From a virus (taxonomy: Duplodnaviria > Heunggongvirae > Uroviricota > Caudoviricetes): a stretch of DNA of 10,148 bases. The stretch is from IMG/VR virus record IMGVR_UViG_2563366802_000015. One strand, written 5' to 3'. Numbering within the stretch: the first letter of the stretch is position 1; each line of letters begins with the position of its first letter. Position numbers and translations under genes: made by a program. This document shows, piece by piece, positions 5,789-10,148 of this stretch. Under the pieces are notes generated by a model. It searched no databases. It was given only the letters and a program-made list of their open reading frames with translations, and was not told the DNA's origin.

Positions 5789-5802
5789 CAATAATGATTG
5801 AC

Positions 5803-5833
5803 ATGCTTGATTTTGTATTCACAAATCAAGCAT
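5803..5833. repeat. Perfect 11-bp inverted repeat ATGCTTGATTT / AAATCAAGCAT with 9-bp spacer, at the backbone-cargo boundary
   Basis: 5803-5813 is the exact reverse complement of 5823-5833. It sits just 3' of the gene A stop and upstream of the methyltransferase gene, overlapping a TTGACA hexamer (5798-5803). No U-tract follows, so it is not a classic intrinsic terminator. Confidence 0.4.
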
Positions 5834-5863
5834 CAAGTAAACATCGATGATGAGAAAGAACAA

Positions 5864-5872
5864 TGCTACAAT
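5864..5872 (+). promoter_or_regulatory. Candidate extended -10 promoter element (TGcTACAAT) for the methyltransferase gene
   Basis: TGnTACAAT at 5864-5872, about 28 nt upstream of the proposed TTG start (5900) and 16 nt upstream of the AGGAGG Shine-Dalgarno. The -35 region is weak, so this is only a candidate. Confidence 0.3.
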
Positions 5873-5899
5873 CCCCACAGCATTAGAAGGAGGTTTATC

Positions 5900-6949
5900 T
5901 TGATTAAGGTTGTTGATTTATTCTGTGGCGCGGGTGGCTTGACTCACGGTCTTCAGAAGTCGGGGCTTAATGTAGTTGCAGGTTATGATATAGATGCAGC
6001 CTGTCGATTTGCCTATGAGACAAATAATAAATCACTCTTTGTCCAGAAAAGTGTTACAGACATTGAGGACGGCGAATTAGTTAAATATTTCGAAGGAGCG
6101 AAGGTTCGAGTTTTGGCTGGTTGTGCCCCATGCCAACCTTTTTCAAGCTATACCAATAGTGCTAAATTAGGGGTAGTACGTTCAAAAGATAAAAGATGGT
6201 CTTTGCTTTATAGCTTTGCTAAGCAAATTAAATTTGCAAAGCCAGATATTATTACAATGGAAAACGTTCCCCGAGTGGTGAATCATAAGGTTTTTAAGGA
6301 CTTCATTAAGTCTCTTAAAAATGATGGCTATTTTGTTTGGTATGGGGTGGTGTTTTGTCCAGACTATGGAATGGCACAAAGTCGTTCAAGATTAGTGTTA
6401 TTGGCATCAAAATATGGAGAAATAGAAATAATTCCACCAACTCATGAGAAGAATGATTATAAAACGGTGCGAGATATAATCGGTAATCTTCCTGAAATTA
6501 GTGCCGGTGCTGTTCACGCTGGAGATAAACTACATCGCTCTGCATCATTATCTGATATTAATATAAAAAGAATAATGGCATCAAAACCTGGTGGAACATG
6601 GCGTGATTGGCCAGAAGAGCTAAGAGCAAAATGTCATACAAAAGAAAGTGGTTCTACATATACTGCTGTATATGGGAGAATGTGTTGGGATAAACTTGGA
6701 CCGACAATTACAACTCAATGTATTGGATATGGGAATGGACGCTTTGGGCACCCTGTCCAAAATAGAGCATTAAGTTTAAGAGAGGCTGCGCTATTACAGT
6801 CATTCCCAGAAAAGTATGAGTTTTGGCCTGATGATGTAAAAATTGAAATGAGAACAGTTGCGCGTTTAATAGGTAATGCTGTTCCTGTTAGGCTTGGTGA
6901 GGTCGTAGGTGAAACTATTTTAAAACATTTGTCAGAAATGAATATTTAA
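5900..6949 (+). CDS. DNA (cytosine-5)-methyltransferase (Dcm-like C5-MTase, probable modification subunit)
   Basis: Canonical C5-MTase motifs in order: motif I DLFCGAGG (5921-5938), motif IV PCQ (6128-6136), motif VI ENV (6260-6268), motif VIII QSRSR, then a variable region and motif X GNAVPV near the C-terminus. Proposed start is TTG at 5900, 6 nt after a perfect AGGAGG (5888-5893). The ORF track's 5798 start is an upstream in-frame TTG that would add 34 non-conserved residues. Confidence 0.9.
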   Translation: MIKVVDLFCGAGGLTHGLQKSGLNVVAGYDIDAACRFAYETNNKSLFVQKSVTDIEDGELVKYFEGAKVRVLAGCAPCQPFSSYTNSAKLGVVRSKDKRWSLLYSFAKQIKFAKPDIITMENVPRVVNHKVFKDFIKSLKNDGYFVWYGVVFCPDYGMAQSRSRLVLLASKYGEIEIIPPTHEKNDYKTVRDIIGNLPEISAGAVHAGDKLHRSASLSDINIKRIMASKPGGTWRDWPEELRAKCHTKESGSTYTAVYGRMCWDKLGPTITTQCIGYGNGRFGHPVQNRALSLREAALLQSFPEKYEFWPDDVKIEMRTVARLIGNAVPVRLGEVVGETILKHLSEMNI

Positions 6950-6961
6950 AACTTATGTCAT

Positions 6962-6985
6962 CCCCCCTGTCAAAAAACAGGGGGG
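6962..6985. terminator. Bidirectional intrinsic terminator hairpin between convergent genes
   Basis: Perfect 9-bp GC-rich stem (CCCCCCTGT 6962-6970 pairing with ACAGGGGGG 6977-6985) with a 6-nt loop, flanked by A/T-rich sequence on both sides. It lies between the MTase stop (6947-6949) and the minus-strand gene stop (6991-6993). Confidence 0.6.
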
Positions 6986-8195: not shown

Positions 8196-8211
8196 GGAAG
8201 GTGCGAACAAG
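8196..8211. repeat. IS5 terminal inverted repeat (transposase-proximal end)
   Basis: GGAAGGTGCGAACAAG matches the IS5 terminus as recalled and is a 15/16 inverted match to 9375-9390. Confidence 0.85.
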
Positions 8212-8227
8212 TCCCTGATATGAGATC

Positions 8228-9244
8228 ATGTTTGTCATCTGGAGCCATGGAACAGGGTTCATCATGAGTCATCAACTTACCTTCGCCGACAGTGAATTCA
8301 GCAGTAAGCGCCGTCAGACCAGAAAAGAGATTTTCTTGTCCCGCATGGAGCAGATTCTGCCATGGCAAAACATGGTGGAAGTCATCGAGCCGTTTTACCC
8401 CAAGGCTGGTAATGGCCGGCGACCTTATCCGCTGGAAACCATGCTACGCATTCACTGCATGCAGCATTGGTACAACCTGAGCGATGGCGCGATGGAAGAT
8501 GCTCTGTACGAAATCGCCTCCATGCGTCTGTTTGCCCGGTTATCCCTGGATAGCGCCTTGCCGGACCGCACCACCATCATGAATTTCCGCCACCTGCTGG
8601 AGCAGCATCAACTGGCCCGCCAATTGTTCAAGACCATCAATCGCTGGCTGGCCGAAGCAGGCGTCATGATGACTCAAGGCACCTTGGTCGATGCCACCAT
8701 CATTGAGGCACCCAGCTCGACCAAGAACAAAGAGCAGCAACGTGATCCGGAGATGCATCAGACCAAGAAAGGCAATCAGTGGCACTTTGGCATGAAGGCC
8801 CACATTGGTGTCGATGCCAAGAGTGGCCTGACCCACAGCCTAGTCACCACCGCGGCCAACGAGCATGACCTCAATCAGCTGGGTAATCTGCTGCATGGAG
8901 AGGAGCAATTTGTCTCAGCCGATGCCGGCTACCAAGGGGCGCCACAGCGCGAGGAGCTGGCCGAGGTGGATGTGGACTGGCTGATCGCCGAGCGCCCCGG
9001 CAAGGTAAGAACCTTGAAACAGCATCCACGCAAGAACAAAACGGCCATCAACATCGAATACATGAAAGCCAGCATCCGGGCCAAGGTGGAGCACCCATTT
9101 CGCATCATCAAGCGACAGTTCGGCTTCGTGAAAGCCAGATACAAGGGGTTGCTGAAAAACGATAACCAACTGGCGATGTTATTCACGCTGGCCAACCTGT
9201 TTCGGGCGGACCAAATGATACGTCAGTGGGAGAGATCTCACTAA
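8228..9244 (+). CDS. insH: IS5 family transposase InsH (DDE transposase)
   Basis: 338-aa ORF whose sequence ([34 protein letters not shown] ... [14 protein letters not shown]) matches E. coli IS5 InsH as recalled. An alternative start at ATG 8264 gives the 326-aa form. Confidence 0.95.
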
Positions 9245-9374
9245 AAACTGGGGATAACGCCTTAAATGGCGAAGAAACGGTCTAAATAGGCTGATTCAAG
9301 GCATTTACGGGAGAAAAAATCGGCTCAAACATGAAGAAATGAAATGACTGAGTCAGCCGAGAAGAATTTCCCCG

Positions 9375-9390
9375 CTTATTCGCACCTTCC
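9375..9390. repeat. IS5 terminal inverted repeat (distal end)
   Basis: CTTATTCGCACCTTCC, whose reverse complement GGAAGGTGCGAATAAG matches 8196-8211 with one mismatch. Confidence 0.85.
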
Positions 9391-9394
9391 CTAA
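9391..9394. repeat. IS5 target-site duplication, right copy (CTAA)
   Basis: CTAA immediately outside the right IS5 terminus, identical to 8192-8195. Confidence 0.8.
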
Positions 9395-10148
9395 CTTTTA
9401 CATCTTTTCCTTCAAAGGTAATAGTATTTGGTAATATGTTTTTTTGTGTGATGTTTGTGCAGGATTTTATCCTTTCAGGGTCGGATTCGCCAAATTCCCA
9501 AATGAACTCGAGATCTGAAAGGAAATCTCTATCTGCCGGTGTAATATCGGTCCCATTAATTTTAACTGTAAAGTTATGGTTGGGGCCAATAATGCTAAAT
9601 CGACGAGCTATTCGCTTTCTGAGGTAAGTTTGAGTCCTATCAATGGCTTTTTTTAGTTCAAATAATTTAATTGTAGTGCCGTAAGCAAGATTTTCGGGTA
9701 TTTCAAGGGAGTCAGCAATATAGTTTTTTGATTCTTTGATACTTTGCTGTAAATCTTTGACATCTACCTCAAAGGCCTGAGGCTGTTCCCCCTTTTTGTA
9801 CGAATAAACTTGGATTTTATTGGCAAGTGAAAACATGGCAAGCTTACCAATACCTTTTCTGCCCATAACTTGACGTTTTAGATGATCGCTTTTGGCTCTT
9901 CCATGTTCCCTGCGAGCATAACCGACTTTTAGGAACTTATTAATAATGTCATCTTTAGACATGCCATGACCATCATCTTTAATGATGACCTCTCCTTTCT
10001 CAACATCAAGTGTAATTTCTACATTTTGAGCATCTGCATCCCATGCATTTGATATAATCTCAGTTAGTACCGCGGGAGTATTGGAATAGAGACTCATCCC
10101 TAGGTGATTTAGCACATTCAAATCAATTTTAATTTCGAAATCTGACAT
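9391..10148 (-). pseudogene. N-terminal fragment of IS5-disrupted gene: GHKL-superfamily (MORC/HSP90/MutL-like) ATPase domain
   Basis: Minus-strand ORF starting ATG at 10146-10148. GHKL Bergerat-fold motifs occur in canonical order: N-box EIISNAWDA (about aa 30-38), G1 box DDGHG (aa 58-62), G2 box GRKGIGK (aa 96-102) and GTT (aa 157-159). The annotated ORF runs to 9282, but its last 36 codons (9282-9390) are IS5 sequence, so the native part ends at the IS5 junction. Confidence 0.75.

Follow-up and report, generated by a model that had tools for sequence, protein, structure and literature searches.

What is the two-gene cargo that follows the replication gene of this P2-like prophage, and does it still work? 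The window (the whole stretch of DNA that was analysed, 10,148 nt) carries a C5-cytosine methyltransferase gene directly 3′ of gene A and, facing it, a large gene cut in two by an insertion sequence. The answer that we favour, with a probability of roughly 85%, is that the pair forms a Type II restriction-modification (R-M) cassette which belongs to the HgiDII/BbrUII family, travels as cargo in the gpA–gpQ hotspot of a P2-like prophage from E. coli and has a dead restriction arm in this copy.

The gpA–gpQ slot and its cargo

Where does the cassette sit? Gene A is labelled 'replication endonuclease' in L001, a locus with which the window shares 99.98% identity, and 'GpA' in the annotation of PhiR44_1, and Pfam Phage_GPA is present in the homologous loci. 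The cassette lies directly 3′ of it and consists of two genes between gpA and gpQ, the portal gene Q being found on the far side in IS5-free relatives. This slot is the old/tin hotspot of P2 (PMC9122126). The first-pass annotation, which had recognised cargo at this position, is supported; the features it described in this stretch are all present in the sequence at the positions it gave. The locus reads as follows.

3473..5788, + strand: P2-type replication gene A, left border of the cargo hotspot
5804..5832, no strand: perfect 10-bp inverted repeat TGCTTGATTT / AAATCAAGCA with a 9-nt spacer, lying in the stretch from the stop of gene A to the start of the methylase
5900..6949, + strand: C5-cytosine DNA methyltransferase, intact, 349 aa, identical to WP_000598783.1 (PF00145, TIGR00675, PADLOC)
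6991..8195, − strand: 3′ portion of the split restriction gene (codons 252–652 and stop), encoding the remainder of the middle domain, then a helical linker and finally the PD-(D/E)xK nuclease domain (reconstruction, NF050001 match)
8192..8195, no strand: CTAA target-site duplication, left copy
8196..9390, + strand: IS5, 1195 bp, splitting the restriction gene at codon 252 (terminal inverted repeats, transposase)
8264–9244, + strand: IS5 transposase (NF033581, 366 bits, cut-off 140)
9391..9394, no strand: CTAA target-site duplication, right copy
9395..10148, − strand: 5′ portion of the split restriction gene (aa 1–251 and base 1 of codon 252), its ATG being the last codon of the window

The longest mechanical ORF of the methylase runs from 5798 to 6949 (+); the true start is likely TTG at 5900, which is preceded by the Shine-Dalgarno sequence AAGGAGG and is also the start in RefSeq. 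The protein matches PF00145 over profile positions 1–323 of 324 (E 1e-55), TIGR00675 with 130 bits and PADLOC MTase_II with E 3e-88, and its set of catalytic motifs (FCGAGG, PCQPFS, ENV, QSRSR, GNAVP) is complete. It converges on the large gene and stops 41 bp from the 3′ end of the latter. Matches of the methylase to DrmMII and DruM, which would point to DISARM or Druantia, were set aside as generic m5C-methylase profiles, with no DrmA/B/C or DruA-E genes present. The inverted repeat upstream, read directly from the sequence, might serve as an operator or form an RNA hairpin. Scanning positions 5700–8300 for promoters and terminators gave fewer promoter-like sites than shuffled controls, none of them usefully placed.

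How was the large gene broken? The insertion is bounded by the terminal inverted repeats GGAAGGTGCGAACAAG/CTTATTCGCACCTTCC of IS5, and taking out the element with one CTAA restores an uninterrupted ORF of precisely 652 aa, the length that had been proposed for the protein. The empty site exists in a prophage that lacks IS5 and is otherwise 99.98% identical. In the window IS5 splits codon 252, leaving no intact, expressible restriction ORF, and this copy is therefore not a working restriction system. The family assignment made below applies to the ancestral restriction gene, not to a functional product of the window copy. The IS5 allele occurs in none of 5426 complete E. coli genomes. In a search at ≥99% identity, 30 of these same genomes carry the IS5-free pair, which is 100% identical among them, always as WP_000598783.1 plus WP_001279022.1 and always between gene A and portal gene Q. 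Some of them bear the label 'ATP-binding protein', and truncated alleles were considered there; what they encode is WP_001279022.1 at full length, for which the label is an older product name.

Domains and family of the 652-aa protein

The rebuilt protein begins with a GHKL ATPase, continues with an Hsp90-like middle domain and ends in a PD-(D/E)xK nuclease. Profiles, invariant residues and fold searches agree with the fusion of GHKL ATPase and nuclease that was first read from the sequence. The two terminal domains map to the window thus.

9702..10073, − strand: GHKL (Bergerat-fold) ATP-binding domain, aa 26–149 (PF13589 E 2e-25, PF02518 E 3e-6)
6994..7518, − strand: nuclease domain, aa ~478–652, with E483 (7501–7503), D532 (7354–7356), E546 (7312–7314), K548 (7306–7308) and Q562 (7264–7266)

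GHKL motifs I–IV (ExxxN, DxGxG, GxxGxG, GT) are all found, with E30, N34, D58, G60, G62, G96, G99, G101 and T158 invariant among 37 homologues; T158 falls just beyond the domain, at 9675–9677. The predicted full-length model aligns with the N and M domains of Hsp90, TRAP1 and GRP94 (E ~1e-12), and it is only from the alignment with the Hsp90 middle domain that we infer an S5 fold for the middle domain. What, then, is the C-terminal part? E483/E511, D532 and E546-x-K548 are invariant in the same 37 homologues, and both the core fold and the D...ExK residues are those of the PD-(D/E)xK superfamily. A PDB search with the full-length sequence returned GHKL relatives only (HtpG, TRAP1, MutL), and a C-terminal profile against the PDB gave nothing meaningful (EVH1, E 0.29), so that it was fold searches that resolved the domain. 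As the full-length fold search was swamped by Hsp90, the C-terminal 183 aa were modelled alone, and the closest structures proved to be NucS and Shedu SduA, including E. coli SduA; the resemblance to Shedu had been suggested before and the structural matches agree with it. The match to SduA_C (PF14082/DUF4263) is weak, at 17.3 bits (E 0.006) against a gathering threshold of 27, and similarly weak matches occur in 21 of 25 homologues (best E 5e-7). Pfam, NCBIfam and PADLOC scans contained no Superfamily-2 helicase/translocase motor of the Type I, Type III or ISP kind. The MZA system was considered through MzaB, whose match (31.7 bits against a cut-off of 850) covers the GHKL region only and is a generic domain match.

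The family is given by a curated equivalog model. The IS5-free reconstruction scores 751.4 bits against a cut-off of 550 with NCBIfam NF050001, 'BbrUII/HgiDII family restriction enzyme', and aligns end to end (residues 4–651 of 652, profile 1–658 of 659); PADLOC REase_II (PDLC03419) matches with E 2e-91. Profile searches, which could have led to a non-defence family, lead to a restriction enzyme instead. The identical protein WP_001279022.1 already bears the BbrUII/HgiDII name in RefSeq, and GenBank phage PhiR44_1 labels the pair 'Dcm' and 'ParaMORC3', its large gene being 99.9% identical; a literature search on PhiR44 found no paper. REBASE names HgiDII and BbrUII as Type II systems, each with an m5C methylase; experiments have characterised M.HgiDII as a GTCGAC/m5C methylase, and M.BbrUII is likewise of the m5C type (PMC5867850), the REBASE entry for the prototype specificity being quoted in PMC6329791. 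The R-M logic that the first-pass annotation saw in the gene pair is supported; its remark that it knew of no experimentally characterised system with exactly this two-gene architecture finds no support, given NF050001 and the named HgiDII and BbrUII systems. The cassette is already known: it belongs to a named R-M family, sits in a known prophage hotspot and is labelled in public databases, so that it adds little that is new for annotation.

Which site would it recognise? By analogy with the prototypes, which come from distant phyla, the specificity is probably GTCGAC/m5C, and it could differ. GTCGAC does not occur in the window, and since 20 other palindromic hexamers are likewise absent, this count is uninformative on avoidance. 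In one transformation study, pre-methylation by M.BbrUII added little (bioRxiv 2023.09.16.557782).

Methylase linkage and competing explanations

Do the two genes belong together? In all 31 loci with a homologue of the nuclease gene (38–100% identity), a homologous PF00145 methylase adjoins it; among the loci are P2-like prophages from Proteus, Shewanella and Gallibacterium as well as a non-phage locus of Alcanivorax. The co-occurrence expected of a true pair is thus seen throughout this sample. The identities of restriction enzyme and methylase drop together (100/99.7, 89/90, 78/75, 68/68, 59/62, 50/57, 45/55, 40/48), and the linkage is kept despite changes of host, prophage position and gene order. 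The cognate m5C methyltransferase that marks the HgiDII/BbrUII family is accordingly present as neighbour. In related loci methylases stay intact beside decayed nuclease genes.

Could the large protein instead be a self-sufficient Shedu nuclease of type I-D, with the GHKL domain as a sensor of infection or DNA ends and the methylase as independent cargo, for instance for phage self-protection? The structural match to E. coli SduA, the widespread weak SduA_C hits, the GHKL-Shedu proteins listed by Gu et al., the paraMORC3 genes without R-M neighbours noted by Iyer et al. and a protein of the same domain order that acts alone (VcSduA, see below) speak for it. Yet Shedu is a single-gene system with no modification partner, whereas here all 31 loci, through all the rearrangements listed, have a co-diverging methylase next to the nuclease; the protein also passes the curated restriction-enzyme model, and intact methylases next to decayed nucleases are what R-M decay is expected to leave. 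We consider this reading unlikely. Less probable still is a nuclease that is not the partner of the methylase and acts on methylated or mismatched DNA, either as a modification-dependent (Type IV-like) enzyme or as a MutL/Vsr-like repair factor: the GHKL domain is weakly MutL-like (1b63) and repair-like recruitment was discussed by Iyer et al., but with a co-evolving methylase next door a Type IV enzyme would turn against its own host, MutL models reach 20–25 bits against cut-offs of 180–937, a Vsr gene is absent and the locus is a phage defence hotspot.

Might the split locus still be active? A hybrid ORF of 424 aa (6991–8265) does exist, starting from an ATG at 8265 that belongs to the end of IS5. 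It would encode the linker and nuclease, which could be deregulated by loss of the GHKL ATPase and kept harmless to the host by the methylase; in the literature, B. cereus Shedu without its N-terminal domains is a constitutively active nuclease. However, there is no convincing promoter or Shine-Dalgarno sequence upstream of this ORF, the middle domain is partly lost, the ATPase activity of VcSduA is required rather than inhibitory, and an allele absent from the complete genomes gives no sign of selection. Activity of this kind is very improbable, if a shade less so than a Type IV or repair role.

The R-M cassette thus remains the preferred explanation. In its intact form, the 349-aa methyltransferase would modify a short palindromic site in host and prophage DNA (GTCGAC in the two named prototypes, and by extension probably in the E. 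coli member) and the 652-aa enzyme would cleave unmethylated sites in incoming DNA. We infer by analogy that the enzyme depends on ATP. The helical linker joins the Hsp90/MutL-like middle domain to the NucS/Shedu-type PD-(D/E)xK domain, and ATP-driven dimerisation of the N-termini, as in other GHKL proteins and VcSduA, might close a clamp round DNA and so license the nuclease. That HgiDII-family enzymes in general are Type II endonucleases in which an Hsp90/MutL-like, ATP-driven GHKL clamp gates a Shedu/NucS-type nuclease is a tentative proposal, to which we give somewhat less than even odds. In the window, IS5 has entered at CTAA in codon 252 and parted the ATPase from the nuclease, and with this separation the restriction arm is inactivated; what is left amounts to an orphan methylase and a gene wreck.

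Why does this matter? The window copy has lost its restriction gene by natural knockout and keeps its methylase, as is typical of R-M decay; yet a 2026 preprint reports pseudogenised defence genes as a rarity in P2 hotspots, at about 2% of pseudogenes. The N-terminal GHKL domain of R.HgiDII was described by Orlowski & Bujnicki (2008), when the C-terminal domain was 'unassigned to any fold'; the latter is now placed in the NucS/Shedu branch of PD-(D/E)xK, which ties the REBASE family to Shedu type I-D. If the gating proposal were true, the HgiDII family would be an evolutionary and mechanistic bridge from classical R-M to Shedu immunity. Whether and how a GHKL domain gives ATP control over a Type II-style enzyme is a testable biochemical question, and the E. 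coli P2-prophage member would lend itself well as a model, since near-isogenic prophages carry IS5-null and intact alleles.

Comparison with known systems

How does the pair compare with what has been described? With P2 old/tin and other gpA–gpQ cargo (Rousset et al. 2022) it shares the genomic slot and a presumed prophage-borne anti-phage role, but the proteins are unrelated, P2 Old being an ABC-ATPase/TOPRIM nuclease and not an R-M system. The layout of a ~350-aa m5C methylase and a ~650-aa GHKL-nuclease is that of HgiDII (Herpetosiphon) and BbrUII (Bifidobacterium breve UCC2003); the E. coli pair differs in its P2-like prophage host and in a restriction gene that is broken by IS5 in the window, and its specificity is presumed by transfer from these systems. 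The paraMORC3 group (Iyer, Abhiman & Aravind 2008) has a GHKL domain, an S5-like middle, a C-terminal restriction-endonuclease fold with E-D-ExK and an association with cytosine methylases, as found here, and both domain order and residues agree with the published definition; the group was defined computationally, and standalone genes lacking R-M neighbours also belong to it.

Canonical Shedu SduA (E. coli 8PS4/8PS5; B. cereus 8TI8) has different N-terminal domains; it is encoded by one gene, forms a tetramer and senses DNA ends. The 652-aa protein matches SduA_C below threshold. A further comparison within Shedu is VcSduA (type I-D), a standalone GHKL+DUF4263 protein of Vibrio cholerae for which phage defence was shown in 2025 (Adams et al. 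2025; PMC12137116) and whose ATPase (E27A) and nuclease (K557A) mutants lose defence (PMC12137116). P0047, a V. cholerae homologue with 61% identity, was considered as VcSduA, but its residue positions misfit and it is not obviously the same protein. VcSduA has the order seen here, a GHKL ATPase followed by a DUF4263-type PD-(D/E)xK nuclease, and its E27 and K557 lie at positions similar to E30 and K548, a likeness drawn from domain order and residues. It works alone without a methylase, whereas the family of the 652-aa enzyme is methylase-linked in every locus sampled.

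The methylase and the split restriction gene

The early/regulatory arm of a P2-like prophage makes up the window, and a prophage beside cpxP in E. coli CFSAN061771 is 99.98% identical to it over 1-8195 and 9391-10148. Downstream of gene A lie two convergent genes, the first of which encodes a C5-cytosine methyltransferase.

1-1011, minus strand: integrase
1051-1344, minus strand: C-type repressor
1497-1769: cox
1933-2439: B
3473-5788: replication gene A
5798-6949, plus strand: longest methylase ORF, from TTG 5798, 383 aa
5900-6949, plus strand: methylase by the RefSeq/GenBank start, TTG 5900, with AAGGAGG ahead, 349 aa
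6991-8195, minus strand: restriction gene, piece two of two
8196-9390: IS5, 1195 bp, between the two restriction-gene pieces
9395-10148, minus strand: restriction gene, piece one of two

This position, between gene A and the portal gene Q, is a defence hotspot of P2 (Rousset et al. 2022, PMC9122126). GC content, about 0.54 in gene A, drops to 0.34-0.39 over 5750-8250 and climbs again within IS5; the low stretch is consistent with foreign cargo. The integrase gene has its stop-codon end at position 1 and the restriction gene its ATG at position 10148; because the window stops exactly there, the restriction-gene promoter and the gpQ flank of the hotspot lie beyond it. In the CFSAN061771 prophage, 431 bp separate this ATG from the portal gene.

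Where does the methylase begin? The 383-aa ORF is probably not the real form, and the Pfam match within it starts only at residue 36. The protein covers the entire PF00145 profile (E 1e-55) and has the full set of m5C methylase catalytic motifs. A perfect 10-bp inverted repeat (5804-5832, TGCTTGATTT ... AAATCAAGCA) lies in the 111 bp that separate the gene A stop from the methylase TTG at 5900; a TTGACA hexamer (5798-5803) directly precedes it. The repeat could be an operator or hairpin governing methylase expression.

IS5 carries its own terminal inverted repeats, is flanked by a CTAA target duplication and encodes a transposase scoring 366 bits against NF033581; it sits between the ATPase-coding and nuclease-coding parts of the restriction gene. 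The first-pass annotation had described a methyltransferase, a convergent large gene and a 652-aa reconstruction without IS5. Since removal of IS5 and one CTAA restores the 652-aa ORF, and relatives have the same site without interruption, this description is confirmed in every detail. Of 5426 complete E. coli genomes, 30 have the intact allele and not one the interrupted form. As pseudogenised defence genes are reported to be rare in P2 hotspots (2026 preprint, 10.64898/2026.02.27.708500), the split allele is one of the uncommon cases.

Linkage of nuclease and methylase

Does the methylase belong to the nuclease? Co-occurrence was complete: a homologous m5C methylase adjoins the nuclease gene in all 31 loci sampled (5 from assemblies and 26 IMG/VR viral contigs; homologues 38-100% identical). 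The genes are convergent down to 44% identity, mostly with 11-59 bp between them; in the four most distant loci (38-41% identity; L030-L033, IMG/VR contigs, restriction gene at about 4001-5960) both are read from one strand, with the methylase upstream. Restriction enzyme and methylase identities to the window pair drop together (100/99.7, 89/90, 78/75, 68/68, 59/62, 50/57, 45/55 and 40/48). The nuclease is thus obligately linked to a co-evolving methylase, and the two behave as a single functional module.

The pair persists in differing surroundings: in E. coli and Proteus it occupies the gpA-gpQ slot, in Alcanivorax a non-phage locus. In a Shewanella baltica P2-like prophage (L004) it lies between a cI-like repressor and the integrase, and in a P2-like prophage on a Gallibacterium metagenome contig (L005) between the immunity region and tail gene D, beside an Abi_alpha gene. 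Because these two positions differ from the gpA-gpQ slot, the module is mobile among the cargo sites of prophages. Upstream of gene A, at 10839-11666, the P2-like prophage of Proteus mirabilis with a homologous pair (L002) encodes a further methylase, of Dam type (MethyltransfD12).

Each decayed nuclease gene still has an intact methylase beside it. Besides the IS5 insertion, the restriction gene is frameshifted in L022 (4001-5955), lies in three fragments in L034 (4001-5942) and in P0025 encodes a protein cut to 477 aa, ending 'KFQKNN' (29 member sequences). The latter three are independent events, and nuclease lost with methylase kept is the usual direction of restriction-modification decay. 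For the window, the most likely state is that restriction has been lost and methylation goes on.

Domains, fold and proposed mechanism

Profile searches of the 652-aa protein partly matched expectation. The predicted N-terminal GHKL ATPase domain was found at residues 26-149 (PF13589, E 2e-25), but the expected C-terminal nuclease match was weak, Pfam SduA_C scoring 17.3 bits, under the 27-bit cut-off; 21 of 25 homologues match this profile. NF050001, the NCBIfam equivalog model 'BbrUII/HgiDII family restriction enzyme' (cut-off 550 bits), aligns with residues 4-651 at 751 bits, and among PADLOC profiles one for Type II REases matches best (E 2e-91). Both the GHKL motifs (E30, N34, D58xG60xG62, G96/G99/G101, T158) and the nuclease motif set (E483, D532, E546xK548, Q562) are invariant across 37 aligned homologues (44-100% identity).

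About 400 columns of the AlphaFold2 model (pLDDT 78) align with Hsp90-family N-terminal and middle domains. The last 183 residues, modelled apart (pLDDT 83), adopt a predicted PD-(D/E)xK restriction-endonuclease fold, for which Foldseek returned only E. coli Shedu SduA below E 1e-3 (8ps5, E 3e-6; 8ps4, E 4e-5). In R.HgiDII a GHKL domain had been recognised, and the C-terminal domain had been left without an assigned fold (Orlowski and Bujnicki 2008); the models show a structural link of the latter to the NucS/Shedu nuclease branch. This link and the part that a GHKL ATPase may play in a Type II-style enzyme are the remaining points of interest.

How might the module work? C5 methylation by the methylase would shield GTCGAC or a related site, and unmethylated sites would be cut by the restriction enzyme. 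ATP binding may dimerise the GHKL domains and close a clamp by which the nuclease domains are positioned or licensed, a step proposed from GHKL motif conservation, general knowledge of GHKL proteins and mutants of the GHKL-Shedu protein VcSduA. A Shedu-like standalone nuclease beside an unrelated methylase is contradicted by the invariable linkage and by the co-divergence of the pair; a Type IV or repair role for the nuclease is contradicted by this linkage, too, and by very weak MutL scores. The restriction-modification reading of the first-pass annotation is correct. Could the split gene still yield a nuclease? A 424-aa hybrid ORF (6991-8265, minus strand) has its ATG inside the left IS5 end and continues in frame into the linker and nuclease parts of the restriction gene; its product, if made, would be a nuclease fragment without GHKL. 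An active truncated nuclease is possible, but supporting expression signals are lacking, with no convincing promoter or Shine-Dalgarno sequence seen for this ORF.

Known systems

The module belongs to an already named and annotated family, of which the copy in the window is inactivated. Published work and existing annotation thus overturn the first-pass belief that no system of this architecture had been characterised. M.HgiDII is a characterised m5C methylase with the site GTCGAC (PMC5867850; REBASE line in PMC6329791), and M.BbrUII is likewise an m5C methylase (PMC5867850). Orlowski and Bujnicki (2008) listed four further REBASE subfamilies with GHKL domains, and paraMORC3, in the definition of Iyer et al. 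(2008), combines GHKL, S5 and an RE-fold domain bearing E-D-ExK and is associated with cytosine methylases. In the 30 of 5426 complete genomes with the exact E. coli proteins, these are labelled 'DNA cytosine methyltransferase' and 'BbrUII/HgiDII family restriction enzyme'; under the same WP accession the latter is 'ATP-binding protein' in older annotation, and GenBank phage PhiR44_1 has 'Dcm protein' and 'ParaMORC3'. Shedu proteins with GHKL N-termini were noted by Gu et al., and VcSduA, a GHKL-DUF4263 protein, protects against phage, requiring both its ATPase glutamate and its nuclease lysine (Adams et al. 2025, PMC12137116). VcSduA acts standalone, whereas the nuclease of the window type has an adjoining methylase in 31 of 31 loci.
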